Shown here piece after piece: positions 363-63,240 of a stretch of 64,000 nt of DNA (its first letter is position 1; every line of letters starts with the position of its first letter). The translations under genes and the position numbers were made by a program. The notes beneath the pieces were generated by a model, which saw nothing but the letters and a program-made list of their open reading frames with translations, had not been told where the DNA came from and searched no databases. This stretch comes from a phage. The stretch is from the sequence record OZ346212.1. One strand, given 5' to 3'.

Positions 363-1049
363 ATGGCAGAGATTAAGTCGGATGTTAACCACATCCACAC
401 TCTGCCAGATTTTGTTCAGGGAGGTCTTGACTACCTGCCTGGAGATTTTCTGGCTGAGAAGGTTAATTTAGTCACATTCTTAACCGTATACCTTAAAAGG
501 TTGGAGGATGTTGATAAGATGCTGGTAGGTTTGGCTGAAGGAAGATTGCTTAACAATGCCAGCGGAAGATACCTTGACGAAGTTGGTAATCAACTTGGTA
601 TTCTTAGGAATGGACTTTCAGATGCTGATTTTCGTGCCACACTAATTATTCAGCAGGCCGCAGCATCAAGGGGCGGGACTCGCGAAGATGTCATCTCCAC
701 CTTGCGACAATTGTTCGGAAGAGACAATTTCGATACGTGGAAAGGAGACAACTTCAGGTTTGACATAAATATTAGAAAAACTTGCTTTGACATATTGCAG
801 TCTATCGATCAGATCTTAGATATGCTACCATTGCCTTGTCATTTGCGTCTTACAGAATCGCAAGGGCAAGCTTTTGGTTTTGAAGGGGACTCTACAGCTC
901 TTGGCTTCGGATCAGTATGGGAAGAAAACCAGTTTGGAGTTGGTGGACTGGCTACTTTGCTGTATGTTCCTGACGTAAGACCTGATTGGGACACCACAAC
1001 CATTTATTGTGAAAGTATTACAGTAAACGCAACTAGACAGGAGGGTTAA
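363..1049 (+). CDS. putative baseplate/tail structural protein (228 aa)
   Basis: ORF in structural operon, start 11 nt after previous stop, stop overlaps next start (TAATG). Confidence 0.6.
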   Translation: MAEIKSDVNHIHTLPDFVQGGLDYLPGDFLAEKVNLVTFLTVYLKRLEDVDKMLVGLAEGRLLNNASGRYLDEVGNQLGILRNGLSDADFRATLIIQQAAASRGGTREDVISTLRQLFGRDNFDTWKGDNFRFDINIRKTCFDILQSIDQILDMLPLPCHLRLTESQGQAFGFEGDSTALGFGSVWEENQFGVGGLATLLYVPDVRPDWDTTTIYCESITVNATRQEG

Positions 1050-2767
1050 TGGCAACAGCTGTTTTTAAACCTTACCGTGATTACTCTACAATGGCTGCAC
1101 GGTTTCATTACCGAACAGTTCAGGATACTGCCGTTCCTGGTAGGGATTATGATCATGTTGAGGGCGATGTAACTATCCCAGTTGGGGCAACCAGTATTGA
1201 GATCCCCGTGGAAATTGTTGACAAATTACCCAACAGGTTGCCAAGAAGCTTCTTTATGGAGTTTTCATCAAAATCTCAAGGGGTGATGATTGGAACACAA
1301 AGGGCGAAATGTACAATAGTTTCAGATGAGAATCTTGACAGGATATCTTGGGATACTGTTGAGGAGAGAATGTTTCACCCAAGATATTGGGTTACAACCA
1401 CTCAGCAGACTGAAAGTACCTGTATTGTTGCAGATAACAACTGTTGTATTAACCGTTTAGTGTCAAGAACATATGGAGGTATGGCTGGGTGCATTTGGGA
1501 AACAGTTGACAAGTATGACCATTTCGGTATTGGGTTTGATGATCACTATGAGATGAGAAACACCAAGCTTTGGTTCAGAATGTCAATAACCAACGCCAGC
1601 AACTTCTCCACTCCTGAAAAGATGATTATGACTGTAGACCTTGTTGATGGCACAATCATCTATGTTCCTTTAGCTCAATATGCTGTCAGCATCTCAGAGG
1701 ATAAGAATGTTGCAGAAATTCATATTGATTTTGAGGACTGCGTCGGGATGGACCAGAACAACAACATGATGGGTGTTGATCCTCGGCAGGTGAGAAGGAT
1801 TTTAATACCGCTTATGCCTAAAGACTGGGTAAGTAATAGCACAGACCCGAGAACGGAAAATGTAAAGTGTGAGTTGCGCCTAGATCTGCTTCAGCCAGAC
1901 ACAGGCTGGAAAATGATGCAACTTAACAATATCCAGGTGAGAGAGCACGATGTTGGGATCTGCACCGCATATGACGATATGTGGAACGTGTCTCCTTTAA
2001 GGGTGTTGAACAATATCAAGCGTCTGGGCTATACCGGAACCATAAACCATTATGTTGGTATGAGTCATTATTATGACTACACATGGTCAGGAACCCAATG
2101 GTCTATAAACAGAACAGGAGCGCTAAACGCTGCAGCTTATAAATGGCATGATGATTTTATGTACAATGCCAAACGACATAACTTCGACGTTATGCAATCT
2201 GTAAGTTTTGAGCTTTTCAGCGATGCCTGCCCGTTGGAATGGACCCAAAGAGACTGGAACGATAACTACGCTAAAACAGGGTATACACCTTGTAGCTACC
2301 TCCTGTCTCCAACCATTGAAGAGGGTATGAATTTCCTTACTGCAGTATTTAAGAATTTTGCATCAGCCGCTATGAGAAACAACCTGCCAGTGATTATGCA
2401 GGTTGGTGAACCGTGGTGGTGGTACAATACCGATACTCGTAGACCTTGTATTTATGATTACCCTACAAAACAGGCGTTTTATGATGAGACAGGCGAGTAT
2501 GCATTAGATATTGGGACTATTGACGATCCTAAAACTGGCGGTGTTTACGATAAGTATGTAGCATTTTGTCGTGGTAAGCTTGGCGCTCGTATTGCGGCTA
2601 TTTCAAAGGCAATAAAGGCACACGCTGCATCAGCTCAGATGACAGCTCTGCTGTTTTCCCAACCATTATGGAAACCGAGCTTACGCAAAAGCTTAACCTT
2701 GCTGACCAATATAAAAAGGAAGCAGGTGCTCTTGATTTCTTCTGCACCGAGTGCTACGATTGGGTGA
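1049..2767 (+). CDS. putative tail fiber / baseplate-attached protein (572 aa)
   Basis: Large ORF translationally coupled to upstream gene; N-terminal stretch DYDHVEGDVTIPVGATSIEIPVEIVD resembles a Calx-beta-like beta-sandwich motif; position equivalent to fiber gene after baseplate genes. Confidence 0.65.
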   Translation: MATAVFKPYRDYSTMAARFHYRTVQDTAVPGRDYDHVEGDVTIPVGATSIEIPVEIVDKLPNRLPRSFFMEFSSKSQGVMIGTQRAKCTIVSDENLDRISWDTVEERMFHPRYWVTTTQQTESTCIVADNNCCINRLVSRTYGGMAGCIWETVDKYDHFGIGFDDHYEMRNTKLWFRMSITNASNFSTPEKMIMTVDLVDGTIIYVPLAQYAVSISEDKNVAEIHIDFEDCVGMDQNNNMMGVDPRQVRRILIPLMPKDWVSNSTDPRTENVKCELRLDLLQPDTGWKMMQLNNIQVREHDVGICTAYDDMWNVSPLRVLNNIKRLGYTGTINHYVGMSHYYDYTWSGTQWSINRTGALNAAAYKWHDDFMYNAKRHNFDVMQSVSFELFSDACPLEWTQRDWNDNYAKTGYTPCSYLLSPTIEEGMNFLTAVFKNFASAAMRNNLPVIMQVGEPWWWYNTDTRRPCIYDYPTKQAFYDETGEYALDIGTIDDPKTGGVYDKYVAFCRGKLGARIAAISKAIKAHAASAQMTALLFSQPLWKPSLRKSLTLLTNIKRKQVLLISSAPSATIG

Positions 2768-3120
2768 TGCAGGGAGGTATTGAAAAGGCAAAAGAGTCTG
2801 TAAACATACCTATCGTTAAGTTAGGTTGGCAACCGTCTGAAATACAATACCTTGCAGGGTTCGTTCCTAGTAAAGAGCTTGCTCCGGTATATGGCTACGA
2901 CCCAACCAGGAATTACCAAGAATTTTTATGGAGATGTATCTGCGGAAACATGGCAACCATAGAGTATAGATACCCTGAGGTAAAACAGTATGTGTGGGCA
3001 TACCCGCAAGTAATGTCTGACAGCATCACTGTTACAGCCAGAGATTCTACCGTGCTTCATATGGGGCAGGTTGCTCTGAAAGGGTATGTAGAAGATGTTG
3101 TCCCTCCAGACTTCTCATAA
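2767..3120 (+). CDS. hypothetical structural-module protein (118 aa; alternative start 2668 gives 150 aa)
   Basis: ATG at 2767 overlaps the TGA of upstream gene (TGATG); track ORF 2668..3120 would overlap upstream gene by 100 nt. Confidence 0.5.
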   Translation: MQGGIEKAKESVNIPIVKLGWQPSEIQYLAGFVPSKELAPVYGYDPTRNYQEFLWRCICGNMATIEYRYPEVKQYVWAYPQVMSDSITVTARDSTVLHMGQVALKGYVEDVVPPDFS

Positions 3121-8310: not shown

Positions 8311-11300
8311 ATGCTTCCAATCCCTTTGCTAAAACTTGGTCGTCATTTCCTCGATAAGAGGGGTGGAATTAAGGAACTTGCTGTTCTGTCATACCCAATA
8401 GACAACAGTGATGGTACAAGCAACACAGTATCCTATGTAAATAGCTTAGCTATACTTTTTGATGATGGTCAGCTTAATATTACTGGCTATAACAAGTTCG
8501 GAGAGTGCCGCACTGGGGATCGTAGCCCTATAAACTATCCGAGCGAAACAGCCTGGAATGTTGATCATGTGTGGAGAGCAGACCGCGCGTTTGTGATCCG
8601 GACTTTTGATAACCAGTTTTTCTACATCGGCTGCACTGCAGGTCTTATCGGATCCACTGCGGCAGGCGGTAATGATGTTTGCGTAAACGAGTGGACACCA
8701 CTCCCAGAGCAGATTGTTAAAGGATTGCACCTTGACACCCACCCAGAACGCCTTATTGAGGTGATGGGCGGTATTAACAACACTGTCTGGGTTATTGCAG
8801 AGGCAGAAGGTACTGGCATACTTAACCTGTATGGATCTGGTAACAACACCTACGGATCTTTGCATGTAGATAAAAATCAGCATGCAACCCCTGTAAAGAT
8901 TGGTGAGACATCGGAAAATCCTGAAACAGGCCCTTGGAAAAACCCAAGCATCAACTGTGAGGTGCATGACAACTCTGTTATTTTCGGTGGTCCTAGGGGT
9001 TTCTGGATTGCTGGATACGACTTTCTGAGAAATAACAGTAGAAACGACCTTGTTTGGCCTCCTGTGCAGATTACTCGTAACGATTTGAGGGGCATTCCTG
9101 CAGATGAGGAGTGGAAAGGGTTTATGTGTGGTCCTAACGGGGCAGTAATTGCTACACAGAGGATGCATAGACCCGATGACCAGCAGCTTGTTAACGTATT
9201 TTATGGTCAAAACATTTGGGGAGATGATACATGGCGGGAACTGAATATCACCTACACCCATGAGGTAATGATGGCTCGTGGGTACGGCACAAGTGGCATT
9301 TTCTTCAATAATGGCACTAAGCAGTATCGTGGGTTCTCTCGCAACTTATGTAATGATATTGGTGCACAATCTGCAAACAATAGTCCTAGGGCCGATTTTA
9401 TCCACTATCAAGCTCTTGCTACAGCTAAATATGTTGAGCAACGCCTGCCAGTCAGCTGGACAGAGAGTGTTTATTTCCAAGGCATCCACAGAGAAGGTTT
9501 CTTAGGGACCTTTACTGTTGTTAATGGTAAACTTTGGTGGTCAGGTATCCCAAGGGGAAGTTTTACAGGCTCTAATAACCTGTTTGGCGGCAGACTTAAT
9601 AGTCAGGGGTTCACAGAGGTTCCTGAGAATTGGTATAAAAATGTCCCAGTAGACAGTTGGGGCGTTGATGATATTTTCGACGTTAATGGTGTTAGCAGTG
9701 TTAGCAATATCTACATTGGTGACACGGTCAAGATGAAATTGAAGCCTCAGCCAGAGGGAGCTACGTTCATCATTGACAAGATTGAACTGGTGAATGCTGC
9801 AGGTACGGTTGTTACAGATGCAAATTACCAATTCTCCACCAACTGGAACCACGGCGGGGCCAACGAAGTTGTTGTTACCCAGTATAACAGAAATGTTAAC
9901 AGACGTGGCCTGTACTCTGTAAAAATAACCTATCATGACAAGCATGGCACAGGCAGAACTCACACGACAAGGACTTTGAACTGGAACACCATAGTTCCTG
10001 CGTATCCGTCCAACGGCAAGTGGCATACCGTTGGTAGAAACAAGCAGTTCCATGTTAACGATACTGTATACTTTGGGCTGAATGGGACCCAGCCTGCAGT
10101 AGAAGGGGATACATCGTATATGGTCAGACTCCACAGAATGGATGCTGGATCAGTCACTTATGATGTGACCCAAGAGATCTACGATCAAAGACGCGCCACG
10201 TATGACAATATTGTGAAAACACAAGCCTTGTGGGAGTTCAATCCTAATGGCAAGGGTGGTAAAATGTTGCAGGTTAATGAGCAGAACGGAACGTCGTTGA
10301 CTGTTCACGAACACCCAGACCCTTGGCCTGATCCTGGAAAACCTCACCCGGGAGCTCGTACACTGAAAATTGTCAGCCATGATGCAGGATATTTCGGAAT
10401 ACGCTGGGAAGCTACAGTAAGATATGTCGACGGGACAACAAACAACATAGGGATTACACTTGGCGGCACTAGTGAAGATAGCTCGCTGAAAATTGCCTAC
10501 ACGCCCAGAGGTATCTCTATTGATAATATGGATGTTGTTCGCAATGGTTACGGCGATGTGAATGTCAAAGTTACTCTTGGCGAACATCTTGGTGGGGAAA
10601 GGATCATCATGTATGCCTTTGATCATGATCCACGCACCAATGGAACTTATGCAAATCAGGCATGGAGTTACCTGATAAATGCACCTGAGCCGAATACTAA
10701 AGAGTTCTACTATGGCATGAAGCGAGATGTGTGCAAGAAAACAGGAACACATGACTGGATTGCTATCTGCGTTAAAGATGAGCGCACAGCTTGGGATGAG
10801 CCTGTTAACAGATGGTTCATAGGTATTCCTACCAGAAGTGATAAGTATGTCGCAGAATATATTGTATGCATGGGCGGTACCAACCTAAACATGTGTTGGA
10901 ACGAAGATGTAAACAAATACTCTGATTATGACTATATGAGGGATTACTCTTGTAATTTGTGGTTTAACCAAACTACAGGTTACCCTCCAAGACAGGCGAG
11001 AGTAAACCCTGCAATCTTCACAGACACGCAGGTTTTCTTGACAAAACAGGCCAACGAGGTTCAGACCTTCAAGAATAAATACGATCCTAACAAGTGGTTC
11101 TACAACTGTTACGGCGCATTTTTCTGGGGACCTGGTGAGTTACCTGGTGGTGGATCTTGCTTGAATGAGGCAACTTACGCAAGTGACTACATCATGGGGC
11201 AGGTCAAGAAGTATAAGATAATCCCCGGTCCTGAGACTTTGGGCAATGCCGTTGACCCTTATATCATCATGACTGCACTGAGATCAAACATGGATGGGAC

Positions 11301-13947
11301 ATCCATGTCCATGCAAATTCCGGTAACAAACGGATACAAACGTGTTGTGATGATCATTAAGTGCGACCTGATAGGTAAACAAGTTCTTGCAGAAAACGGG
11401 ACATCCACACATCCTTTTGAGATCGCTCTGCACTATCAGTTTGCTGACTCACCTTTTGCAGGGGATAAGAGAATATCTGATACAGACGCACAGCGTTGTA
11501 AGAAAGTATTGTTGGGTGCAGGTTGGTGGTGGTATGAGTTTGATTTAACAGACAAATTCACCGACACGTCTAAAGTTGTAACAGGACTTCGTCTAGACCT
11601 TGGCGAGAACATGCACAAAGCTGTTTGTGATGGCACCTATGGTGACCCTACAATATACCTAAAATATGTTTCTTTTGAGCATCCGGAAGATGTTGTCTAC
11701 GGTCCAAAACTGAGATTGTTTGGCAGCTGGATTGCAAAAGATAGGGTAGGCATGGGTAAGAAGGTAAGAGGGTTCTTGGTTGATGCAGGAACAGAAGACA
11801 TGCTGGTTAATGCAGTATGGCCTGAATTACCTGGGACTCAGTGGGACAACTCAGCCAAATCTATAAACTGGTTTAACATTCATAGGGCCATGTGGACCAC
11901 TAACTGCTACTTGTGGAGAGAGCTTAACGATCAGGCCTTTGGATTCAGCGAGGGTAGAAGGATGGCGATCATTTGCTGGACAACACTGCAAAGATGTTAT
12001 GACCATGACTATGAGATTGGAGGCAGGGCATGGAAAAATATCAGGGATAGAATCATAACCAATTTTGCAGACGACAACGGTGGTGGAGCACATAACTTTG
12101 GCACAAGCCGACTCATCCATTTGAACGGATCCTCAGCCTACAAGAAAGAAGGTTACTCTGGGTCTATGATCGAGCGGGGTCTGGTGAAAGATGCTCGCGT
12201 ATTGATGGGCCAGCAACTTGCTGCCGCAGTAGGTCCCAGCGCAGTGCAGTCGGTTAAACCAGCGTGGTTCGATATTCCATTGTGGTCACCCGGAACACCG
12301 GGAACTGCTGCAATCAACCCTACCACTGGGGATCTGGAAATCTCCTGGGAAGACCTGAAGCAGGTCGGTGGTTGGGACAAAACAGGGTATCAGGTTCAAT
12401 GGTGGAGGGCTGACGGATCTTTAGCCGCTGATGAGTTTGTTAAGGACAATTTCTACACTATGTCCTCTGCAAAAGCACAGCAATTATTTGGTCAGGCAAC
12501 TCCGTCAACGATCACCATGTCTATGTGCTGTAAAGACAACAGGACTGGAGCTTTGGGGCCAAGGGTTGCTAAAGTTTTCTCAGGTATTAAATGGAATCTA
12601 CCTGTCCAAAGTATTTCATGGAAGCAAATAGGTGATAACAAGCTGCTGGTTACCCCTGCCTGTCAGTTCAACGCAACTCTTAACGTTGATCCTGCTGTTG
12701 CGGCAAACTCAGCTAAAGCTTCTGACTTCTCTGTGTCTAACACTGCTATGGCAGATGTGAGGAAGATTGACACGCTGAACGCCAGAATTACCTGTAAAAA
12801 CACTTATGGCACATTCCAAATCATCAACAACTTCACAGATGCTGATTCTAAGGTAGTGAGGACAGCAAGCCAGACTCTGAGTTTAGGAACTCTGGCCTAT
12901 GCGGCCCTGATCACCGAACAGTCGGCAACACTCCAAGGAGGTGGTGTAGGCAAGTCCATTACAACACCTGTGTGGAAGCCAAATGAGTGGGTTGTGTTTG
13001 ATTTGACTGTGGACTTCTCCAGCGATAATAACTGGACATGGGTAAGGAATTGTTTGTCACAGTTGATGGGCGGTCCAAGCTCCGTTAGTGATAGTCACGA
13101 CTCTACTGACCCGAGTGTGTTCCAGGTAGGTAAAACTCACCCAGAGACTGGAGAAACGTTGCCTGACAGGAAGTATGCTTTGGTTTGCATCTCTTACGGG
13201 AAGGCAGATGTCGCCTTCTCAGGGACACACACTTATAACGGAACCTACAACTTCTCAAGGAAGTATAGTCTCAAAGCAGGGAACATTATAGACGAGGTTG
13301 GTGCGCTGTATAATCCGGGCAACGGCATAGGGATTGTTGGTGGTAAACTGCAGATGCAGGAACCTTCTATTACCCCTTCCAACGTATCCGGGATTAGAAA
13401 GACTTGGGAAAGTAGTAATACCAACATTGCAACAGTGGATGCCACCACAGGACTGGTAACATTTAAAGCTACTGGGAATGTCACCATAAAGTTTGTAGTT
13501 ACTGATGATGTAGGGCGCAAAACGTCTTCAACATCTTTTACTGTCAAACAGATGGCACCACAGTGGAGAATGTGGATAGGTACAGCAACAAACGGGGCAT
13601 ACCCTAATCCGTCAGGTACTTCTGGTATGAAGACTTTCTCTACAAGCAAACCGATGGAGTACGGCAGCGGTCCTAAGGTAGGGCAGATGGTGTACTTTGG
13701 TGCGTATATTCCTGAAATTATAGGGCTTCCTAGAAGTCAGCTTCAGTTGCTGTTTGGGGCTGGTGTTGACGATCTTGCCACTTTCGGGTATAGCGACAAC
13801 ATCGAGGCTGCAAGGAGTTCAGGATGGGTAGGGTTCAGAATGGAGTCTGGAAAGGAAGGCAGGATTCTAGGGACAGCCTCTATAGGTGTTATGTTCCCTG
13901 GTGACCAGCAGTATCGTCTAGAAGCCTACGCAACCTTTTCTCGTTAA
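8311..13947 (+). CDS. giant multi-domain structural protein (1878 aa), putative tail fiber/adhesin with RCC1-like, FN3-like and Big_2-like segments
   Basis: Single uninterrupted ORF; N-terminal repeats (GYNKFGECRTGD, YGSGNNTYGSLHVD) resemble RCC1 propeller blades; near C-terminus ...IRKTWESSNTNIATVDATTGLVTFKATGNVTIKFVVTD matches the bacterial Ig-like group 2 pattern. Confidence 0.8.
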   Translation: MLPIPLLKLGRHFLDKRGGIKELAVLSYPIDNSDGTSNTVSYVNSLAILFDDGQLNITGYNKFGECRTGDRSPINYPSETAWNVDHVWRADRAFVIRTFDNQFFYIGCTAGLIGSTAAGGNDVCVNEWTPLPEQIVKGLHLDTHPERLIEVMGGINNTVWVIAEAEGTGILNLYGSGNNTYGSLHVDKNQHATPVKIGETSENPETGPWKNPSINCEVHDNSVIFGGPRGFWIAGYDFLRNNSRNDLVWPPVQITRNDLRGIPADEEWKGFMCGPNGAVIATQRMHRPDDQQLVNVFYGQNIWGDDTWRELNITYTHEVMMARGYGTSGIFFNNGTKQYRGFSRNLCNDIGAQSANNSPRADFIHYQALATAKYVEQRLPVSWTESVYFQGIHREGFLGTFTVVNGKLWWSGIPRGSFTGSNNLFGGRLNSQGFTEVPENWYKNVPVDSWGVDDIFDVNGVSSVSNIYIGDTVKMKLKPQPEGATFIIDKIELVNAAGTVVTDANYQFSTNWNHGGANEVVVTQYNRNVNRRGLYSVKITYHDKHGTGRTHTTRTLNWNTIVPAYPSNGKWHTVGRNKQFHVNDTVYFGLNGTQPAVEGDTSYMVRLHRMDAGSVTYDVTQEIYDQRRATYDNIVKTQALWEFNPNGKGGKMLQVNEQNGTSLTVHEHPDPWPDPGKPHPGARTLKIVSHDAGYFGIRWEATVRYVDGTTNNIGITLGGTSEDSSLKIAYTPRGISIDNMDVVRNGYGDVNVKVTLGEHLGGERIIMYAFDHDPRTNGTYANQAWSYLINAPEPNTKEFYYGMKRDVCKKTGTHDWIAICVKDERTAWDEPVNRWFIGIPTRSDKYVAEYIVCMGGTNLNMCWNEDVNKYSDYDYMRDYSCNLWFNQTTGYPPRQARVNPAIFTDTQVFLTKQANEVQTFKNKYDPNKWFYNCYGAFFWGPGELPGGGSCLNEATYASDYIMGQVKKYKIIPGPETLGNAVDPYIIMTALRSNMDGTSMSMQIPVTNGYKRVVMIIKCDLIGKQVLAENGTSTHPFEIALHYQFADSPFAGDKRISDTDAQRCKKVLLGAGWWWYEFDLTDKFTDTSKVVTGLRLDLGENMHKAVCDGTYGDPTIYLKYVSFEHPEDVVYGPKLRLFGSWIAKDRVGMGKKVRGFLVDAGTEDMLVNAVWPELPGTQWDNSAKSINWFNIHRAMWTTNCYLWRELNDQAFGFSEGRRMAIICWTTLQRCYDHDYEIGGRAWKNIRDRIITNFADDNGGGAHNFGTSRLIHLNGSSAYKKEGYSGSMIERGLVKDARVLMGQQLAAAVGPSAVQSVKPAWFDIPLWSPGTPGTAAINPTTGDLEISWEDLKQVGGWDKTGYQVQWWRADGSLAADEFVKDNFYTMSSAKAQQLFGQATPSTITMSMCCKDNRTGALGPRVAKVFSGIKWNLPVQSISWKQIGDNKLLVTPACQFNATLNVDPAVAANSAKASDFSVSNTAMADVRKIDTLNARITCKNTYGTFQIINNFTDADSKVVRTASQTLSLGTLAYAALITEQSATLQGGGVGKSITTPVWKPNEWVVFDLTVDFSSDNNWTWVRNCLSQLMGGPSSVSDSHDSTDPSVFQVGKTHPETGETLPDRKYALVCISYGKADVAFSGTHTYNGTYNFSRKYSLKAGNIIDEVGALYNPGNGIGIVGGKLQMQEPSITPSNVSGIRKTWESSNTNIATVDATTGLVTFKATGNVTIKFVVTDDVGRKTSSTSFTVKQMAPQWRMWIGTATNGAYPNPSGTSGMKTFSTSKPMEYGSGPKVGQMVYFGAYIPEIIGLPRSQLQLLFGAGVDDLATFGYSDNIEAARSSGWVGFRMESGKEGRILGTASIGVMFPGDQQYRLEAYATFSR

Positions 13948-14767: not shown

Positions 14768-15148
14768 TTATGACACTTTGACATAGCGCTCTGACAAAGC
14801 TGGGAAGCCAAAAGTAGTGCCTATACTACCATAGGCTATCCACCATTGGAGTTCATCGTGACACCATTTTCCGATCAGGAAGGTGCTGGGATAGCGGGTC
14901 AGTATTTTGGCATAAGCTTTAGGATCTGCATCTTCTGGGATAATGATGCTTGGAATATCTTTGTTATGACCACAGCAGCAGTTTAGCGTTTTCAAACCTG
15001 CTGCCCACAAACTCATGATAGGCTTAGCCATACACTTATCAAGGCACACACGTTTTTTGCCGTCACGAAGATTTTTAGGCACATCAACGATAACATTTGG
15101 ATGCTTGGCACCTTTTACTTTCCAATTATAGGATTTACACTTGCACAT
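14768..15148 (-). CDS. hypothetical Cys-rich protein (126 aa)
   Basis: ORF with SD GGAGAC upstream; multiple Cys clusters (CKCK, CLDKC, CCCGH) suggest metal binding. Confidence 0.6.
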   Translation of the reverse strand: MCKCKSYNWKVKGAKHPNVIVDVPKNLRDGKKRVCLDKCMAKPIMSLWAAGLKTLNCCCGHNKDIPSIIIPEDADPKAYAKILTRYPSTFLIGKWCHDELQWWIAYGSIGTTFGFPALSERYVKVS

Positions 15149-25231: not shown

Positions 25232-25732
25232 GTGAAAATTAAGATCTTTGCTATTATTTTGAGCGCACTTTTATCGCTGCCTGTTGTTGCAGCACCAAAA
25301 CAAAAAGTATATCATACTTGCAAGCCCTCAGATACTAAGGAAAACATTCTGGCATGCAATATCTACAGGGAGGCTAGAGGGGATGGCACGATGGGTATGC
25401 TGGCATCAGGGTTTGCCACACTAAACAGGAAATCTCACCCCAAATACCCAGACACTATAAGAAAGATTGTCTACCAACCTAACCAGTTTTCGTGGACAAA
25501 CCACGGCAAAACTTTTAAGGTGACAGAAAAAGATTCATGGGATCACGCTAAAAGTCTTGCAAAGATGCTTCTAAAGGTCTATAATAACAACCATGTTGCA
25601 TACATGGCTATGGACATAACAGGTGGAGCAACACACTACCATACAACCAAAGTACGACCGAAATGGGCAAAAAAGATGCAGAGGACAGCTCAATTCGGGA
25701 GTCATATCTACTACAAGGAGCGCAATAAATGA
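25232..25732 (+). CDS. secreted SleB-like cell wall hydrolase (166 aa, GTG start)
   Basis: N-terminal signal-peptide-like segment (KIFAIILSALLSLPVVAAP); core NIYREARGDG...LNR...YPDTIRKIVYQPNQFSW matches the SleB-type lytic hydrolase pattern. Confidence 0.7.
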   Translation: MKIKIFAIILSALLSLPVVAAPKQKVYHTCKPSDTKENILACNIYREARGDGTMGMLASGFATLNRKSHPKYPDTIRKIVYQPNQFSWTNHGKTFKVTEKDSWDHAKSLAKMLLKVYNNNHVAYMAMDITGGATHYHTTKVRPKWAKKMQRTAQFGSHIYYKERNK

Positions 25733-26274
25733 TTGTAAACAGTAATGAAACTAAAGCAGTACTAACCGGAAATATGGAGGTCACCAGGGGCTCAATTTCT
25801 CTGAACAAAGAGACTTTTGGGCTAATCATTAAAGGGATTTACGAAGATAAGGTGCTGGCAAGCTGCCGTGAACCAATCTTCAATGCTGTGGACTCCCATG
25901 TTGAGTCTGGACGGGGTGATGTACCGATCATCATTCACTCTCCTACAGACCTTGAACCATACTTCTTTGTGCAGGACGTTGGATTGGGCATGTCGGAAGA
26001 GATGGTCCGCAACACTTTCATGAACCTCGGGGAGTCAACCAAGCGCAACAGCAACGCTCTGGTAGGTAATAAAGGTGTAGGTTCAAAGGCCCCGTTCAGC
26101 ATGGTGGACACTTTCGATGTGATCAGTGTGCCATACCAACACAACAGTGCTAAGTGCCGTGCATGCCGCTACGAAATAGTAGCAGCACCGGAATCACGCA
26201 AAGATGGCGATCCGATTGAATACGTAGTTGACCGTGATGGTAACATCATCGACATTATCTACGAGGAGGCGTAA
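25729..26274 (+). CDS. small GHKL-fold (HATPase_c-like) ATP-binding protein (181 aa)
   Basis: Bergerat-fold motifs in canonical order: N-box EPIFNAVDSH, G1 VQDVGLGM, G2 GNKGVGSKA; SD AAGGAG. Confidence 0.55.
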   Translation: MIVNSNETKAVLTGNMEVTRGSISLNKETFGLIIKGIYEDKVLASCREPIFNAVDSHVESGRGDVPIIIHSPTDLEPYFFVQDVGLGMSEEMVRNTFMNLGESTKRNSNALVGNKGVGSKAPFSMVDTFDVISVPYQHNSAKCRACRYEIVAAPESRKDGDPIEYVVDRDGNIIDIIYEEA

Positions 26275-33520: not shown

Positions 33521-35944
33521 ATGAGCATGTGGTCGTTCGACTTTGAGTCATCCGGTTTGCTGGAAGACCCAGATCTTTATTATCACTGCGGCCTGTTTAA
33601 AGAGCTGAATAAGAACCGTTTTATGCTGTTCCTTCCTCTAAATGACCGCACACACTACTCCGAGGAGGATATAGAAAAGGCTAAGAACTTCATTCTGGCA
33701 AAGAAAACTCTTTATAAAGATTTTGAAGTTCGCATAGCAGATTTTTCAGAGTTGGAAGGTTGGCTTACAGGAAATTCTGACTGGTCACCAACAGCTTTGA
33801 ACTGCCATAACTGCTACAGTTATGACTTTATGCTGATGGAAAGATTATCTGGTATTCATTTTGATATGTTCCGTGATCCTAAGTGTATGGGGACTATCAA
33901 CGATCACCAGGTTAACCTGTTTGATACGTTGGCGATGAGCCGAATCTTGTGGCCTGATCGCCCTTTACCAAAAGGTTGTCCGGACTCTGTATTCAACCCG
34001 GTTACTAAGAAAATGCAGCCTGTTGGTCCTCACGGCCTTATGGCATGGGGCTACGCCCTTGGTAACCAGAAAGTTCAAATTGATGACTGGCGCGATCTTC
34101 CGTTATGGAAGTATGTGGATCGTGTATTTGAGGACGTTATCATCCAGGAGCTGCTCTGGAAAGAGCTGGTAGCGGAATCAAAAGGTGTATTCTACGGCAA
34201 ATCTGACATGCAGAACTTTATGTACGATCCTGCCAAAGAGAAGCCGAAAGGGTTCAAGAAGATCACCTGGAAGAACGCATTACGTCGAGGCATGTTGCAG
34301 CACTTCCTGATGGAGCTGCAGGCCCGTCAGGGTGTATACTTCGACATAGATGGGGCTATTGCTTTACGTGACCGCTGCGATGCGTGGATGAAAGAGATCG
34401 CTGATCGTGTTGAACCACAACTGCCTTTAAAAGAGCTGTCAATGTCTCAGCGGCCCAAGTTCCCTGAAAAGCCGTTTAACCAAGATGGGACAATCTCTAA
34501 TAATGGTTGGAAATGGTTAAAAGATAAGCTTGGCTATCCTGTGGACATGAGTGCTTTAGAGTTCAAAGCCCCACCTAAGCGAGCATTTACCTCTACAGGA
34601 GATGTCAGTAAGATGGGGATAAAATGGTGTGAAGAGATGGGCTGCAAAGACCACGATAAGATGGCTGATTTCTTGAGAGGTTATATTAAGGGCACCTCCA
34701 CACCACAACCTTTACCTAAAGAGCTGATGGATCAGGCAATAAGCGATCTGCAACAGAAGCGAATGCCTGACTGCAAGATACCTATGAAAATCAGCAATCA
34801 GGACGACATTAAGCGATACCTGATCAGTGCTGGTTGGCTTCCGACAATGTGGAGAACTAAGGATGTAACTAAGGACAGCAAGAAGAAAGCTCTACCTGAT
34901 GCAGATGTTGATGCACGAGTATATGCATACATGGACGAGCTTTTAGAGTCAGAGTATTGTGACCTAATTATCAACTTCTGGAACAAAACTGATGCTAAGT
35001 TTCAGACAACAGTGCACAAGTTCCGAAGCTTTCCTAACTCCGAAAGGATTAAAAAGGAAGTGTTCGGGAAAATACGCAGAAAAGCCAGGGCACTTATTAC
35101 TTCTCCGCAACTGAAAGATACGTTTGGACACCTATGTCCGAATCTTGAAAAATTGAACGGAGAGATGGCTAAAGATATCGTCTTGTGGTTATCATTGCGA
35201 AACCGCAGATCGGTCCTTGATCCAATCAAGGAGGATAAGGTTGATACTGGTCTTCTTAATCACCCACGTTTGAAGATTGACCATAAGCTTCCTGCTAAAA
35301 GCTCTGGATTAACAAACACTTCCCGACAGAAACACAGTATTTGTGCAAACATGCCTAAACCATCTCCTAAAGTGGTTATGGGTAAAGAGATGCGTAGCTT
35401 GTGGGGTGTTCCTCCTGGATACTTTGAGATCGGTATTGACGGGTCCAACTTAGAGCAGCTTATCGGGGCTTGGGGTGCCTTTGAGTTCGACAACGGCTTG
35501 TACTATGATGTTGTAAGTAACGGGGACGCACACCAAAACAATGCTGAGGCATATACAAAAGTAGCAGGCAGAGAGGTGTCTCGTAACGACGGTAAACCTA
35601 TCACGTATGGGGTTATGTACGGGGCACAAAAAGATAAAGTTGCAGATATGCTGGATATCTCCCCAGAGTTGGGGCAAAGGGTGATCGATGCACTTTGGGA
35701 TGCCAACCCAGGTCTTAAGGGGCGCAAAGAGGATCTGGAGAAATTCTGGGAAGCAACAGGTAAGAAGTTTATCTACTCTTTTGATGGTCATGCTATCTGG
35801 ACCCGATCTAAACACTCTTTACTTAATGCATACCAACAAAATGGCGGCGCATCGTTGTGTGACTTAGTTGGGATACTCATGCACCATCAAATGGTGAAGC
35901 GTGGGTGGTACGATGAAGGTGTTCGTCGTATTATCTATTACCAT
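33521..35944 (+). CDS. DNA polymerase, family A, exon 1 (exo domain through motif B)
   Basis: Exo I SFDFES; motif A ...EIGIDGSNLEQL...; motif B ...RNDGKPITYGVMYGA...; the ORF reaches a stop 2 codons after the proposed 5' splice site and lacks motif C. Confidence 0.8.
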
Positions 35945-36786
35945 AAATAACATTGTGGCTTCGTGCAGTGATGCACGTCGAAAACCTCTTTAATTGACGG
36001 GAAGGCTAAGTTGACTTTTACACCTAAACATGGTAAAAGCTCAATATGCTAATCCGCAGCGAAGACTAAAGGGGTGTAGTTAAAATGGCTAGATCAGTTG
36101 AGTATCACGGATATACCGTGTTTGATGATGGAACAATACCTTTATCGAAACGTGATCATACAACAATGTTTTGTTTTGATAATGGTCGAGGTTACCTTTG
36201 CGTAACCATGTTCATCGAGGGGAAGCAGTGCACAAAAGGTGTCCACCACTTGGTTGCTGAATGCTTTGTATCAAACCCTGATCCTGAAAGGCTCACATGG
36301 GTGAACCATAAGGACGGAAACAAATACAACAATGCATACTGGAACCTTGAATGGACCACCCCTGGTGGAAATATCAAACACGCTTATGATAATGACCTCA
36401 GAGTAAGGCCAGTCGGTGAGTATAATGCCAACGCTGTACTGACCGAGGATGAGGTAACGGAGATTTGCGAACTGTTACAAAGTGGTTTACGACAATGCGA
36501 GATTAGGGATCTTGGGTATCCTTATGAGACGGTCAGAGCCATAAAGCAAAGAAGACAGTGGAAACATATCTCTAAAAACTACACCTGGTAGTAACGTTCA
36601 GAGACTATCGAAAGCATAGCGCCAACATAAATTGGTGCGAAGAAGCGAGTAGAGTAGACCAGCAAGTGCGGTCGAAATGGGAGGTGCCTTGGTAACAAGG
36701 TAGTGAGATAGTCCGATCCATACAGGAAACTGTATGGCTGTGCACGTAATGGTGCGGGGTAGCTTAACGACCTACCTGAACTATTG
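35945..36786 (+). ncRNA. group I self-splicing intron (842 nt) interrupting the DNA polymerase gene
   Basis: Core elements P aattgacgggaagg (35992), Q aatccgcagcgaag (36051), R gttcagagactatcg (36596), S gagatagtccgatcc (36705); exon ends in U pairing with intron GUGG; intron ends in G; removal restores RIIYYH-DEYQLQV (motif C). Confidence 0.75.
36085..36591 (+). CDS. HNH homing endonuclease encoded within the intron (168 aa)
   Basis: HNH_3-like motif VHHLVAECF...VNHKDGNKYNNAYWNLEWTT; lies between Q and R elements (P6-loop position). Confidence 0.8.
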   Translation: MARSVEYHGYTVFDDGTIPLSKRDHTTMFCFDNGRGYLCVTMFIEGKQCTKGVHHLVAECFVSNPDPERLTWVNHKDGNKYNNAYWNLEWTTPGGNIKHAYDNDLRVRPVGEYNANAVLTEDEVTEICELLQSGLRQCEIRDLGYPYETVRAIKQRRQWKHISKNYTW

Positions 36787-37140
36787 GATGAGTACCAACT
36801 TCAAGTCCCTGACACACCGAAGTATAAGACTGTGTACACCTTCGACACAATCGAAGAACTGGAAGCATTTAAGGCAGAGCAGGAGGCCAAACTTCATGTG
36901 TTCGACGGTCATAAGTACAAAAAGGCACGCAAGGATGAGGACGGAAACGAAGTGGTTGACAGAGACGGAAACACGGTGTACGATCCTATCCTGAACGATG
37001 ACGGAAAGCTTGAACTTATCTGGAGCCCTGTGGGTGAAATGGTGGTGCATTGCTTCTGGCAAGCTTCTAAAATGATGGGCGTCCCGTTCCAGATCACGGG
37101 TGAATACCTGTGTGGTCGTAATTGGGGTGATTGTCACTAA
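36787..37140 (+). CDS. DNA polymerase, family A, exon 2 (motif C to C-terminus)
   Basis: Begins DEYQLQV in frame with exon 1; no plausible independent start or RBS. Confidence 0.7.
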   Translation, partial: DEYQLQVPDTPKYKTVYTFDTIEELEAFKAEQEAKLHVFDGHKYKKARKDEDGNEVVDRDGNTVYDPILNDDGKLELIWSPVGEMVVHCFWQASKMMGVPFQITGEYLCGRNWGDCH

Positions 37141-57245: not shown

Positions 57246-57595
57246 TATTCGTCCTCCTCTTCGGTGCCTGCTTCCAGTAATAAGTTAAGAATATCTTCTG
57301 CACAAGGCTCATAGAACTCTTGGCCTTCATTATCGATGATTTTGTAGTCATCTCCACGAATAATCAGGGGATCACTCTCAAAATTATCGAGACCTTTAAC
57401 AACGACAACACGATCGATTGCCATCATTGTAAGAACTTTATCGACATCTTCCTCTGCTACACCATACTGCAGCAGAATGTCTTTGGTAGGAGGAACAGCA
57501 TCCACCACAACGCCGTTACCAAAACCTTCTGGAAGTTTAGCTAAAATATCTTCCGGAACCACATTCACATCAAAACCGGTAATTTCTACTTTCAT
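57245..57595 (-). CDS. small acidic protein, MK(I/V)K family A (116 aa)
   Basis: MKVEITGFDV...LPEGFGNGVV resembles products of 57596..57856 and 59020..59289. Confidence 0.6.
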   Translation of the reverse strand: MKVEITGFDVNVVPEDILAKLPEGFGNGVVVDAVPPTKDILLQYGVAEEDVDKVLTMMAIDRVVVVKGLDNFESDPLIIRGDDYKIIDNEGQEFYEPCAEDILNLLLEAGTEEEDE

Positions 57596-57856
57596 TTACA
57601 GCACCTCTTCGTCAACTACTTCATAAAAATGGCCTGGGATTGCAATAGCGTTCTCACCTTCACCTGCAAACACAGTTCCGTCAAGAATCAACATCATAAG
57701 AATTTCTGTAATATCCTCTTCCGGAACGTTGCCAAAACCTTTAATCAGCTCGTAGGTTGGAATATTTACATCTAAGATGTCACCATCTTTAGAACGGAAA
57801 TCAACACCGTCCTGAATCTCTGCCGTTTCAAGGTTTTTCAATTTAATCTTCATCAA
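57596..57856 (-). CDS. small acidic protein, family A paralog (86 aa)
   Basis: SD AGGAGAC; MMKIKLKNLE...IKGFGNVPEED. Confidence 0.6.
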   Translation of the reverse strand: MMKIKLKNLETAEIQDGVDFRSKDGDILDVNIPTYELIKGFGNVPEEDITEILMMLILDGTVFAGEGENAIAIPGHFYEVVDEEVL

Positions 57857-57932
57857 TCGGTCTCCTGTCTTGTTAAGATGAAGGTATTATTTCACACAGG
57901 GTTGGCGTTGTCAACACCTGTGTGCAAGAAAA

Positions 57933-58328
57933 TTACTGAAACAGTGCGGATAAATTACCTTCTGGTGGGAACTTATCTGCCAAAAACGGTGTTAGCACAG
58001 TAGCCTTCTGAAGATCTGGGGTCCACTCGTTGTTCAGAACATCCCAGTAGTACGCAATGTTGCTGTGTGGGTGCCGCATTACGAACTTTTTCCCTTCGTA
58101 GTCGTCTGAAACCTCTACAGAAGAAATAACAACAGAATCTTCAAGGGTTTCTTCATAGAAAGATCCCCCTTCAAATTTCCAACGAGATGCAAGAGCCCCT
58201 GCCTTGAACGCTGCAGATAACGGACTGTCGGCAAGAACATACATTTCTTGCACTCTGTCGCTGCGATCTTTGCTTCTTACGTTGTATACAGTATCTGAGC
58301 TATACTCAACACGGTATAGGCTTACCAT
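57933..58328 (-). CDS. small protein, family B paralog (131 aa)
   Basis: SD GAGGAGG; ...RHPHSNIAYYWDVLNNEWTP... aligns with ...HPDSRVKHYWNSRTKTWTP... of 60140..60538. Confidence 0.65.
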   Translation of the reverse strand: MVSLYRVEYSSDTVYNVRSKDRSDRVQEMYVLADSPLSAAFKAGALASRWKFEGGSFYEETLEDSVVISSVEVSDDYEGKKFVMRHPHSNIAYYWDVLNNEWTPDLQKATVLTPFLADKFPPEGNLSALFQ

Positions 58329-58660
58329 TACCGCACCTCCTCAATAACTTCCACATCTGAACCTACCACAAATGCAAAAGGACAGGTTTCATGAAAGACA
58401 TCTGGATCGCCGCCAAGCTTGCTAACAATCTCTCCACCACTAATAAACACAAGCTCACCGATATTCATCAGATTGCTGAAATAGTAACCATAATGATTAA
58501 AGAATGCAGCAGGGTCAGGTAGACTGGTAGCCTCAAGCACTACATCGGTTGAGGTTACTTTCTTATCATAACCTCTCGCCTTTTGAGATGCAAGATCTGC
58601 AGAATCCTCAGGAGACCGGAGATGCACAGGAATTGTTTCACCAATAAAGCGTACTTTCAT
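58328..58660 (-). CDS. small protein, family C-like (110 aa)
   Basis: ATG 58660 preferred; C-terminus ...VGSDVEVIEEVR resembles family C endings. Confidence 0.55.
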   Translation of the reverse strand: MKVRFIGETIPVHLRSPEDSADLASQKARGYDKKVTSTDVVLEATSLPDPAAFFNHYGYYFSNLMNIGELVFISGGEIVSKLGGDPDVFHETCPFAFVVGSDVEVIEEVR

Positions 58661-58664
58661 ATTA

Positions 58665-58928
58665 TCACCCAACAACCATAGCTTCAAAAGGAGTCATGAA
58701 CGAATAAACGGCATCATCATCTGCTTCAGGGAATGCTCCCAAAGACTTCATATCTGAACCCTTGACAAATACAAGGTTTTGATCAAAGGCTTCTTGGGGG
58801 TCAATCCGATACATATTTCGTAGAATATCGCTTACCTCCTCATCAAGAGGTGAGTATGCTGTGCACGTTTTTCCGATCAAGCTTTGAGAATCAGGGTATC
58901 CACCTGAAGTTTTAAAATAAACAATCAT
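58665..58928 (-). CDS. hypothetical small protein (87 aa)
   Basis: SD GAGGTGA upstream. Confidence 0.6.
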   Translation of the reverse strand: MIVYFKTSGGYPDSQSLIGKTCTAYSPLDEEVSDILRNMYRIDPQEAFDQNLVFVKGSDMKSLGAFPEADDDAVYSFMTPFEAMVVG

Positions 58929-59019
58929 ATAGTATCACCTCTGGTAAGAGATTGGGATTCCTTTCCCACAAATAATTACAAATCTTCCTTATCGAGGAAG
59001 TATGCTAATCCAAGCAGGA

Positions 59020-59289
59020 TTATTCCTCTACAATCTCATACACATCAGGAGTTACAATCAACTCTTCTCCGTTACCCGGTGCAACAAACACCACCAAACC
59101 TTCAGGTGTGTGCTTTTTAGCCATCTCGATAACATCTTCTCGCAGAGCTGGCTCCATCAGATCAAAACCTTCACCCAGGGCATCACGAACCACCTTCATA
59201 TAGTCAACTGGTTGTGCTTCAACAATCATGCCTTCAACCAGTCCACAGTTTTTGTCTGCCAGCTCAGTTTTGAATAATTTAATTTTCAT
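59020..59289 (-). CDS. small acidic protein, family A paralog (89 aa)
   Basis: SD GAGGAGAC; MKIKLFKTELA...ALGEGFDL. Confidence 0.6.
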   Translation of the reverse strand: MKIKLFKTELADKNCGLVEGMIVEAQPVDYMKVVRDALGEGFDLMEPALREDVIEMAKKHTPEGLVVFVAPGNGEELIVTPDVYEIVEE

Positions 59290-59426
59290 TTAGAGGTCTC
59301 CTCAATTATTTGATATTAATAGCCGTAACCTAACACATTAACTACAACTGCGATTGCAAACATAATTTCAAAGCATGCAATCTCTACATTTGGGACTAAT
59401 TTCTTAATCACACCCATTGTAGCACC

Positions 59427-59747
59427 TCATTCTCCAAAGTCAATCTTTACTTTGCCTTTCCCCTTACCTTTCTTTCCACCGCATTTAGCCAGCTGACGTG
59501 CTGCAACATCTACCATACGGTCAGTTGCCTCGTAAGCATCACTGCCTTTAGCCTTGGCAATAACTTCTTTTCCAGAATTGTCAAAAATGAACGCCATAAC
59601 TTCCTGGTGATCATTTTCAACTTTTACACTTACACGTGCATAGTTAACAGAGGGATGTAAACGCTCCAGCTTGGACATTTTGCGGGAAATAAAAGATACC
59701 ATACCTTCTGTGATTTCTACATTGTTGCCAGTGATTTCAATTTGCAT
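59427..59747 (-). CDS. ribosome hibernation promoting factor / RaiA (S30AE family) homolog (106 aa)
   Basis: MQIEITGNNVEITEGMVSFISRKMSKLERL...VKVEND...GSDAYEATDRMVDVAARQLAK parallels bacterial HPF/YfiA along the whole length; Lys/Gly-rich C-terminal tail. Confidence 0.75.
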   Translation of the reverse strand: MQIEITGNNVEITEGMVSFISRKMSKLERLHPSVNYARVSVKVENDHQEVMAFIFDNSGKEVIAKAKGSDAYEATDRMVDVAARQLAKCGGKKGKGKGKVKIDFGE

Positions 59748-59830
59748 AACGTGTTCCTTTTAAGGAAGAGGGAATAACTATCTCTCTTTGAAAACAATGA
59801 TACTAAATCTGAAGCGTTGTGTCAACAGTT

Positions 59831-60122
59831 TTTACAGCTTGTTGTCGATAGTTTTTAAAATATCCACAGCAAGATCTGCCATTTTTCGAACATACTCTGC
59901 AAACTCAACAGGATCCTTGATCAAAGAATTCACAGGGTCGTACCCTAGAGCGTTTAAAATGGCTGCAGCATCTACAACCTTCTCATCATTTGCGAAGATC
60001 TCTCCGTCAAACTTGTAGGTCTATTTTGAGTCAACCTTAGCAGAGCAGGGTTTGTCCATGCTTGTTACACCATCGTCTTTAAACTCTCCTGCGTTATCAA
60101 TATTTAGAATTAAATCCATCAT
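59831..60122 (-). pseudogene. disrupted small gene: in-frame TAG then a second stop and a frame change
   Basis: ATGATG at 60122 with SD GTGAGGTG; 33 codons to TAG (60021..60023); 26 more codons to TAA; protein-like sequence continues in the +1 frame to the stop at 59831. Confidence 0.4.
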
Positions 60123-60139
60123 GGTGACACCTCACTGTT

Positions 60140-60538
60140 TCAGTTTAGCTTTTCTTCAACAACCCCATAACTTGGGGCAGAGTCAAGAGCTTTCTGGTTT
60201 AAAAGTGGCGTAGCAGAATCTGCAAACGGTGTCCAAGTTTTTGTTCTGGAATTCCAGTAATGCTTCACTCTGGAATCTGGATGCACTATAACAAAAACTT
60301 TTTCACTTGTCAACACATTAATTTCTTCTACACCCTTGCTGATAATTTCTCCGTCATAGCCCCCAGTCTGGTATCCTTCGTACCAGGTTCTTGCATAGGC
60401 ATAGCCAGCCTGCCAGCATGCAGCCTCCTCCGAGGTGGAGACTACGTAGAAGTCTTTCTCAAATTCCGGAATACGCCCTTGCTTTACGCTCCAAGCTCCG
60501 CGAATTTTCATTGTTACTTTGAAAAGCTTGTTCTTCAT
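60140..60538 (-). CDS. small protein, family B paralog (132 aa)
   Basis: Coupled to upstream gene; aligns with 57933..58328 product. Confidence 0.65.
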   Translation of the reverse strand: MKNKLFKVTMKIRGAWSVKQGRIPEFEKDFYVVSTSEEAACWQAGYAYARTWYEGYQTGGYDGEIISKGVEEINVLTSEKVFVIVHPDSRVKHYWNSRTKTWTPFADSATPLLNQKALDSAPSYGVVEEKLN

Positions 60539-60539
60539 A

Positions 60540-60794
60540 CTACCGCTCTACAATCTCTACGTCTGTTCCTACACCGAAGGCATAGTAATGTTCTTCCCCA
60601 AAGTAATACTTGGGGACACCCGCTTTGATCAGATCTAACCCGCGAATAAATACCACACCGTGTGATACAGTGGAATGCTTCTGACGCACAGGATCGTTGT
60701 CAGGCAACCATTCAAAGTACACCGCAGGTACAACCTTTCCCTTCAGGAAGGATTGTCCCAAGTAGACGTTAGAATCAAGAATTTTAACCTTCAT
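60540..60794 (-). CDS. small protein, family C paralog (84 aa)
   Basis: SD GGAGGAC; MKVKILDSNVYLGQSFLKGKVV aligns with MMKVKVLDSSFYIGQEPLVGKVF of 60784..61011. Confidence 0.65.
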   Translation of the reverse strand: MKVKILDSNVYLGQSFLKGKVVPAVYFEWLPDNDPVRQKHSTVSHGVVFIRGLDLIKAGVPKYYFGEEHYYAFGVGTDVEIVER

Positions 60795-61011
60795 TCTCGT
60801 CCTCCACTATCTCTGCATCCTCACCAAGGGCAAAGTTGTAGGTCCACTGGCTGTCAAAGCAGTCCTGAGATGCACCAGCGGCAATAAGATCTGCACCTTT
60901 TATTTTTAAAAGGTCAGGATAATCTTCGTTAGGGATAGCGGTAAACACTTTCCCCACTAAGGGCTCCTGACCAATATAGAAGCTTGAATCTAAAACTTTA
61001 ACTTTCATCAA
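60784..61011 (-). CDS. small protein, family C paralog (75 aa)
   Basis: SD GAGGGAG; overlaps downstream gene start by 11 nt. Confidence 0.65.
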   Translation of the reverse strand: MMKVKVLDSSFYIGQEPLVGKVFTAIPNEDYPDLLKIKGADLIAAGASQDCFDSQWTYNFALGEDAEIVEDENEG

Positions 61012-61295
61012 CGGTCTCCCTCAGGCGGTTGTGGGACGTAAACACTGTTACGAATATCGTCAGCAGTGTAGTAATAAGTGGTTCCAACCCTATCTCGGGC
61101 TGCAATGTACTCTGCTATACCAACAAGTGCCATTGATTTGGTGGCGTATCTTCCCCACTCGTTAGCTCCCCAGTAGAATTTAGACCAGTAGGGAATAAGA
61201 CCGAACAAATATACCTTTTGACGAACTTCCCAGTAAGTGCCTTTTCCGACAAGTTTAAACTCTACTTCACTACTGTTAATCTTTTTCATTATCAA
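61008..61295 (-). CDS. hypothetical Trp/Tyr-rich small protein (95 aa)
   Basis: SD GAGGGAG; start overlaps stop of upstream gene. Confidence 0.6.
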   Translation of the reverse strand: MIMKKINSSEVEFKLVGKGTYWEVRQKVYLFGLIPYWSKFYWGANEWGRYATKSMALVGIAEYIAARDRVGTTYYYTADDIRNSVYVPQPPEGDR

Positions 61296-61588
61296 TCTCC
61301 CTCTACCGTGGTCGGATTGTCAGTAAGAAATTGAGCATTGGCTGGAGGCACGCCTGACATTTTCCACACAACCATAAGTTTATAACCAGGCACTCTATTA
61401 AGTGCAGATCGAGTAGAGTTTGTGCACGTATACTTTCGCTTTCCAAACCCGTTCTCCATCATAATCCAGTACCCAGTATCTTTGTCACCAGGTATCGGTA
61501 GACCACCTTCATCAACCCACTGAATTGACCACGGCACGATGGCTACAGCTTTATATTTAAACTTTTTAAACCACTCAAAAAGTTTCAT
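61292..61588 (-). CDS. hypothetical small protein (98 aa)
   Basis: ORF coupled to downstream gene. Confidence 0.6.
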   Translation of the reverse strand: MKLFEWFKKFKYKAVAIVPWSIQWVDEGGLPIPGDKDTGYWIMMENGFGKRKYTCTNSTRSALNRVPGYKLMVVWKMSGVPPANAQFLTDNPTTVEGD

Positions 61589-61888
61589 AATTCAGCCCCG
61601 CATAGACATAATCACTATAAATAGGCAAACAATGAATCCGAATGCCACGCCACCCATAAACGTTAATATTGATGCAATCATAGTCAATCAGCCTCGCCTG
61701 GCAACTCTTCTACCTTAACATGCCGAAAAGTGTTACCGTAATGGTTGATCCATGACATCAGCTCACTTTCTTGCTCTTCCTCTGGGATGAACTCTCGAAT
61801 ACTGACAAGTTTTAAGAAAACCTAATCACAATCTGCACCCATTCTACCAGACAGACAATAGTGCTTCATAAAAACCCTCCCGCCCGGT

Positions 61889-62083
61889 TTAGAATATTGC
61901 TTCTTCCATTGCGCCTGAGAGCAACAAAGAGGTGATCTGGCTAACATTCATCTCAGACTCTACTTCCTCCCCTTTGAAAGGTTCGCGGCAGAATAGGACT
62001 GTTTCAGGACTTTTACTTCGAACAATATAATACAAATCATTCAATGTGTTGTAGTAATAAGTGTTAAAACGTAAGTTTTTCAT
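61889..62083 (-). CDS. hypothetical small protein (64 aa)
   Basis: SD AAGAGGA; followed by a weak hairpin and about 200 nt with no credible ORF. Confidence 0.55.
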   Translation of the reverse strand: MKNLRFNTYYYNTLNDLYYIVRSKSPETVLFCREPFKGEEVESEMNVSQITSLLLSGAMEEAIF

Positions 62084-62367
62084 TTTCTAGTCCTCTTCTT
62101 AGATTTTTGGGGAGAAACGCTTTCTGCAATACGAGACAGACGTTCTTCTGAAGCCTTACCTACTCCAGGTTTTTTGAGTGGATTATCTTTATGACCACAA
62201 TCCAACTGGATATTGGATACCTCTCCAACTTTGTAAGTCAATTCTAGCAAAAGGTTGTCGTCCTTGTCAAATGTTTTTACGATAAATTTTTTATCGTTCT
62301 CCTGAACTTCATATCTGGTACCTGCAGTATACAGCATGGTGCCATCAGCATAGGATATCCAGATCAT
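62080..62367 (-). CDS. hypothetical basic small protein (95 aa)
   Basis: SD AAGGAGG; coupled. Confidence 0.6.
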   Translation of the reverse strand: MIWISYADGTMLYTAGTRYEVQENDKKFIVKTFDKDDNLLLELTYKVGEVSNIQLDCGHKDNPLKKPGVGKASEERLSRIAESVSPQKSKKRTRK

Positions 62368-62711: not shown

Positions 62712-62773
62712 TCTCTCTACCTCTTTCTTAGTTTATTTCACTATGGCACATCCTTTGTGCCATATCTCAACTA

Positions 62774-63238: not shown

Positions 63239-63240
63239 CG

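Follow-up and report, generated by a model that had tools for sequence, protein, structure and literature searches.

The stretch of DNA analysed here (the window; 64,000 nt of sequence record OZ346212.1) comes from an rV5-like E. coli myophage (Vequintavirus). The region around the gene of interest matches 118 phage records at 87-99.7% identity, nearly all of them Vequintavirus, and the nearest relative overall is phage naswa (MN850595), with 99.85% identity over positions 1-26131 of the window. The gene, of 96 codons, belongs to an extended run of small early genes on the minus strand, which has sigma-70-like promoters. A Shine-Dalgarno (SD) sequence (GTGAGGTG, 60135..60128) precedes an ATGATG at 60122, as an earlier note on this DNA had seen, and a sigma-70-like promoter lies directly past the stop codon of the gene; rV5 and Gotham have a promoter annotated under the aligned stretch. 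The next gene downstream, which encodes a ribosome hibernation factor, has its own SD in addition to this promoter-like site (59825..59797). A further near-consensus sigma-70 promoter-like site (TTGACA, 17-nt spacer, TATAGT, TG extension; 60285..60313, minus strand) is located within the coding sequence of the 132-aa gene upstream of the 96-codon gene. The features are listed in Table 1.

Table 1. Features of the window discussed in the text, with positions counted from the first letter of the window
Feature	Position	Strand	Basis or remark
96-codon gene, ortholog of Murica gp131 / naswa_175, PHROG 12029	59832..60122	-	Single-frame translation, PHROG match, annotated orthologs
Shine-Dalgarno-like GTGAGGTG	60128..60135	-	5 nt upstream of ATG 60122; same in relatives
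Amber codon replacing Trp34	60021..60023	-	Changed base 60022: G>A on minus strand, C>T on plus strand
Sigma-70-like promoter, TTGACA + 17-nt spacer + TATCAT	59797..59825	-	Consensus scan, 11/12 positions
Ribosome hibernation / S30AE-family gene, Pfam PF02482 (E = 4e-15)	59427..59747	-	Immediately downstream of 96-codon gene; already annotated in relatives
61-codon early gene, PHROG 2381 (E = 3e-21), naswa_181 / Murica gp125	61684..61869	-	Private TGG>TAG at codon 16
rIIA–rIIB fusion ORF	25729..26274	+	Junction about 26101..26131, about 31 nt matching both sides
T5>T4 homopolymer difference at 2654	ORFs 1049..2767 and 2668..3120	+	Splits 690-aa baseplate/tail-fibre gene
843-bp insertion with HNH homing endonuclease	35944..36787, ORF 36085..36591	+	Splits DNA polymerase gene near codon 808

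Translation of 60122..59829 in a single frame gives 33 codons, a TAG, 62 sense codons (TYKFDGEIFANDEKVVDAAAILNALGYDPVNSLIKDPVEFAEYVRKMADLAVDILKTIDNKL), and a TAA at 59834..59832. The protein-like N-terminal reading MMDLILNIDNAGEFKDDGVTSMDKPCSAKVDSK, reported in the earlier note to run into a TAG at 60023..60021, is confirmed by this translation. The remainder of that description does not hold: the TAA placed 26 codons after the TAG is absent in frame, being an out-of-frame triplet inside ATT TTA AAC (Ile-Leu-Asn); the segment read in the +1 frame as 'NDPVNSLIK' is YDPVNSLIK in the original frame, which runs on to the TAA; and the end is at 59832, not at 59831. A programmed frameshift would involve two overlapping frames at a slippery site, whereas a single frame is present here from ATG to TAA; frameshifting, one of the options offered in the earlier note, is thereby excluded.

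The protein with Trp restored at the TAG matches PHROG 12029 (annotated function unknown) over residues 1-96 of 96, with E = 7e-63, and is 77-97% identical to full-length homologs; a Pfam search with the same 96-aa protein gave no match. An intact 291-nt coding sequence is annotated at the same place in rV5_ev146, naswa, Murica, magaca, A6-1 and nomo, and in these six relatives the gene order is kept, with the 96-aa gene flanked by the 132-aa gene and the gene for the S30AE/HPF-type ribosome hibernation factor. Because the Trp-restored frame fits PHROG 12029 end to end and the relatives have an intact coding sequence, the coding signal before and after the TAG is, as judged from these comparisons, not due to chance.

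A search of 5.8 billion proteins found only 36 clusters of the 96-aa protein, whose named sources are Escherichia phages or E. coli assemblies, the long contigs being about 135-140 kb, which is as large as a vequintavirus genome. Across the 28 full-length protein clusters, the N-terminal ~33 residues are variable and residues 35-96 are almost invariant. An AlphaFold2 model, computed for a 97% identical homolog (cluster P0001) in place of the Trp-restored sequence, has a mean pLDDT of 58, with residues 1-49 below 50 and two helices, residues 52-58 and 71-95, at pLDDT 74-86. A Foldseek comparison with viral models returned nothing outside the PHROG 12029 family itself.

Inside the 291-nt gene, the sole base that differs from naswa is 60022, which changes TGG to TAG. 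Codon 34 is TGG in all six relatives upon alignment, and Trp34 is present in 27 of the 28 full-length protein clusters (the remaining one having Gly) and in both IMG/VR loci. The TAG allele is private to the window: the 71 nt around the TAG recur unchanged in not one of 117 phage records, neither IMG/VR nor the JGI metagenome contigs contain the exact 29-mer with the TAG, and a search of E. coli genomes and plasmids gave no closer copy. More generally, no other TAG-bearing sequence was found in phage records, IMG/VR, JGI metagenomes, E. coli genomes, plasmids or a gene-position index, and a literature search on amber mutants of rV5 and other Vequintavirus phages and on rV5_ev genomes yielded nothing relevant. 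The intact orthologs (Murica gp131, AKU44223; naswa_175, QHR68989; rV5_ev146, VVG93920) have the position, SD, start and stop of the window gene; unlike them, the window copy has TAG in place of the Trp34 codon and has coding capacity for only the first 33 residues. The window gene thus has the sequence match and the conserved position of a PHROG 12029 member, with an ORF interrupted at codon 34. The comparison with intact homologs in related phages, which the earlier note had proposed as a check, shows one ORF broken by one base. Of the 'decaying paralog' suggested there, the decaying gene survives and the paralog does not; the locus is rather a nonsense allele of a single-copy conserved ortholog.

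The 96-aa gene is damaged in other genomes as well. In 135-kb JGI and ENA contigs, a -1 frameshift in an A-run at codon ~17 leaves a 75-aa call starting at Met22, and three of the protein clusters (P0033, P0034 and P0036) are deletion fusions without the N-terminal part that keep only the C-terminal 38-50 residues. Two ENA contigs, MUNK22-1 scaffold_129813 and NODE_157254 (L003 619..622 and L016 600..603), carry AAATGACC at codon 34. This allele is 1 nt shorter than the TGG or the TAG allele, and could arise by one deletion from either; in it, a 33-aa ORF meets a 63-aa ORF, which covers the conserved domain, in an ATGA stop/start overlap. Like the window, the split allele is damaged at codon 34 and specifies the same 33-aa N-terminal product; in contrast to the window TAG allele, which is without such a restart, it could allow re-initiation, which would yield the conserved C-terminal 62 residues within a 63-aa protein. 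The two contigs are short, 99.7% identical to each other, and of very low coverage (cov 0.39 in the contig name). We treat their codon-34 event as independent of that in the window because none of the other private SNPs of the window, looked for in both contigs, is shared. To judge by the lesions in other genomes, the 96-aa gene is dispensable or prone to damage.

A second amber is located 1.8 kb upstream, on the same strand, in a 61-aa early gene. Specifically, the Trp16 codon of this gene is TAG (61824..61822, changed base 61823) in the window and TGG in the loci of seven relatives, as determined by tblastn, translation and DNA alignment; this second private TGG>TAG is, by these comparisons, new here. 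When every ORF of Murica and naswa was compared with the window by tblastn, premature stops appeared in only these two annotated genes. Seven further 'nonsense' differences (36787 to 53500), called by a 'longest-frame' classifier among 722 SNPs between the window and naswa, were not counted; the ones checked against the naswa annotation lie in antisense frames, off-frame ORFs or intergenic sequence, 52580 being called antisense by strand alone, and 50662, outside the checked set, is a stop in naswa and sense in the window.

Over the 7.2 kb from 56400 to 63600, the window has 17 bases that none of five relatives shares: 9 are synonymous, 6 are missense, and 2 are nonsense. On the minus strand, these private SNPs comprise 7 G>A (including 61622), 4 T>C, 3 G>T, 2 C>T and 1 C>G. 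A signature of hypermutation or deamination was considered and rejected, since the changes are mixed and the G>A sites have no common sequence context. Escape from restriction through loss of a GGWCC site (TGGACC>TAGACC) was likewise rejected, 59 GGWCC sites remaining in the window.

The window genome has other lesions and differences. A deletion of 2.6 kb relative to naswa leaves the N-terminal ~134 residues of rIIA joined to the C-terminal end of rIIB; of 119 related phage records, not one spans the junction, and there is no record of the fusion protein. The homopolymer difference at 2654 disrupts a 690-aa gene that is intact in naswa and rV5_ev146 (there annotated 'EPS depolymerase activity'), and could be either a real truncation or a homopolymer sequencing error. 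The DNA polymerase gene is interrupted by a mobile element that is known to be polymorphic: naswa and Murica lack the insertion, 31 related records have it, and the copy in phage AlexBoehm is 100% identical. At 10594, within ORF 8311..13947 (plus strand), the G4 of the window corresponds to G3 in naswa; a single 1878-aa ORF is kept in the window, where naswa has two annotated coding sequences (naswa_69 and naswa_70), and the frameshift appears to be on the side of naswa. The two ambers, the rIIA–rIIB deletion and the tail-fibre frameshift suggest that the isolate carries several loss-of-function lesions.

We conclude that the TAG at codon 34 is quite probably a nonsense (amber) point mutation, W34*, in an early accessory gene that Vequintavirus phages conserve but can do without. 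The findings that point to loss of function are the intact ortholog in close relatives, the single disabling change, and the expected absence of a downstream restart. In the mechanism we propose, a single G>A transition at 60022 (minus strand) would have turned the TGG of Trp34 into TAG; ribosomes would initiate normally at the SD and ATG and would be stopped by release factor 1 at codon 34; the product would be a 33-residue peptide from the N-terminal, variable part of the protein, which is predicted with low confidence; and the nearly invariant, helical C-terminal two-thirds (residues 35-96) would not be made. Past the TAG, there is no in-frame ATG, GTG or TTG for 30 codons, and the first is a GTG at codon 64 (the start of an ORF at 59933), which has no SD; because the first in-frame start lies at this codon, translation of the conserved domain is not expected to resume. 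The truncated product is presumably non-functional, and the net result would be a null allele. The hibernation-factor gene downstream should be unaffected, and little polar effect of the nonsense codon is expected because that gene has its own promoter-like site and SD.

Amber (UAG) nonsense mutants are classical in coliphages such as T4 and lambda. As in those mutants, one transition makes a sense codon UAG, and translation stops short in any host without a suppressor tRNA. Unlike those mutants, the window allele bears no sign of selection as a conditional lethal or of a suppressor host, and the gene affected would be a non-essential accessory gene.

Three points count against the reading as a loss-of-function allele, one of them, the make-up of the five private changes from 61823 to 60022, being taken up below with adaptive inactivation. 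First, the two hits on codon 34, in the window and in the ENA contigs, are a coincidence without an explanation. Second, a real mutation and a consensus error are told apart only by reads, and the option of a sequencing error, raised in the earlier note, survives to that extent. In this alternative, the true genome would have TGG at both 60022 and 61823, and the TAGs would be consensus miscalls. Both TAG changes are private to the window, as expected for miscalls, and the break in the 690-aa gene is a 1-nt undercall-like difference in a T5 run, typical of homopolymer error. Against this, substitution errors seldom persist in a consensus, and the two TAG sites, whose contexts were inspected, share no known methylation motif. 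The sequence also looks well assembled overall: the 26 kb that are 99.85% identical to naswa contain only three indel sites, so the assembly is not error-rich, and one of the three is a frameshift of naswa itself and one is intergenic. In the 9.8-kb replication block, furthermore, 112 synonymous differences from naswa stand against 6 missense ones, which also argues against error. For the change at 60022, real mutation is the likeliest origin and a base-call error the less likely one, and error at the two sites as a full account of the ambers is, in our estimate, unlikely.

A special case of real mutation is adaptive inactivation, in which the 96-aa and 61-aa early proteins would be sensed or harmful in some host, for example as a trigger of abortive infection, and null alleles would be selected. 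The five private changes from 61823 to 60022 include no synonymous change and both TGG>TAG changes, a pattern that favours such selection, as do the independent damage to the 96-aa gene in other contigs, twice at codon 34, and the loss of rIIA/rIIB in the same genome. Two nonsense changes among five unselected changes have a p of roughly 0.02-0.03, by a post hoc and rough estimate, and the nonsense pair among these five nearest changes may point to more than neutral accumulation, for instance to inactivation having been selected or to growth in a suppressor host. The numbers are nevertheless small and the test is post hoc, and two nonsense changes among all 17 private SNPs over the 7.2 kb are unremarkable (P about 0.2, a rough estimate). 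In addition, PHROG 12029 and PHROG 2381 have no known function or link to defence, and the ENA contigs are of very low coverage. We regard adaptive inactivation as distinctly improbable.

Growth in an amber-suppressor host, for example an E. coli K-12 laboratory strain with supE44/glnV44, would allow the ambers to be tolerated or partly read, giving a reduced level of full-length protein, with position 34 occupied by Gln or Tyr. Consistent with this, there are two independent TGG>TAG changes and zero TGA or TAA nonsense changes in annotated genes, and E. coli DH5alpha is the host named in the record of at least one related phage. DH5alpha carries supE44. Nevertheless, few single-step changes produce a stop codon as often as TGG>TAG, a G>A transition, and a pair of ambers therefore calls for no special cause; moreover, the two genes are small and accessory, and are lost in other genomes anyway. 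There is only a slight chance, in our judgement, that a suppressor host accounts for the ambers. An equally slender prospect is that the paired Trp-to-amber changes and the codon-34 damage elsewhere would reflect a selected switching-off or splitting of early proteins sensed by host defences, or conditional expression through a suppressor tRNA encoded elsewhere in the phage or by the host. For suppressor-host growth and for selection for inactivation, the positive evidence is the pair of ambers alone.

Programmed recoding, in which the TAG would be decoded by readthrough or under a reassigned code, or a programmed frameshift would be in use, has in its favour the bare fact of a protein-like frame flanking the stop and can be set aside as practically excluded, since there is no frame change, every relative has TGG so that nothing is conserved at the site, about 12 of the 113 non-overlapping ORFs of the window end in TAG (including an 84-aa gene at 60794..60540, two places upstream), only 2 of about 110 genes are affected, and a suppressor tRNA is absent from the window and from naswa. 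Specifically, no tRNA genes were found in the 64-kb window, the tRNA region of this phage falling outside it, and the seven tRNA genes of naswa (Arg, Tyr, Ser, an odd unassigned one, Thr, Met and Pro) include none with a CUA anticodon. In the naswa record (L012), ARAGORN calls a 99-nt tRNA-like gene at 15038..15136, within the tRNA cluster of that phage, with a four-base anticodon (atcc), which is entered in GenBank as 'tRNA-OTHER' and is not a CUA suppressor. Stop-codon-recoded phages read TAG as an amino acid, with phage suppressor tRNAs. The window gene resembles the genes of such phages in having an in-frame TAG inside a conserved coding frame; it differs in that TAG is a normal terminator in the window, which shows no avoidance of this stop. 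Readthrough, the other recoding option of the earlier note, is on the same evidence very unlikely.

The preferred reading, a loss-of-function amber allele, has consequences for annotation and for the biology of the phage. The locus should be annotated as one disrupted gene, rather than as two or three short ORFs or as a recoding event. As a private allele in an uncharacterised accessory gene, the nonsense change would be of little weight in itself. The presence of several lesions in one genome would be relevant if the phage serves in therapy or biocontrol or as a reference genome. Finally, the two ambers would imply that two small early genes of this phage, encoding the 96-aa and the 61-aa proteins, are dispensable under at least one growth condition.
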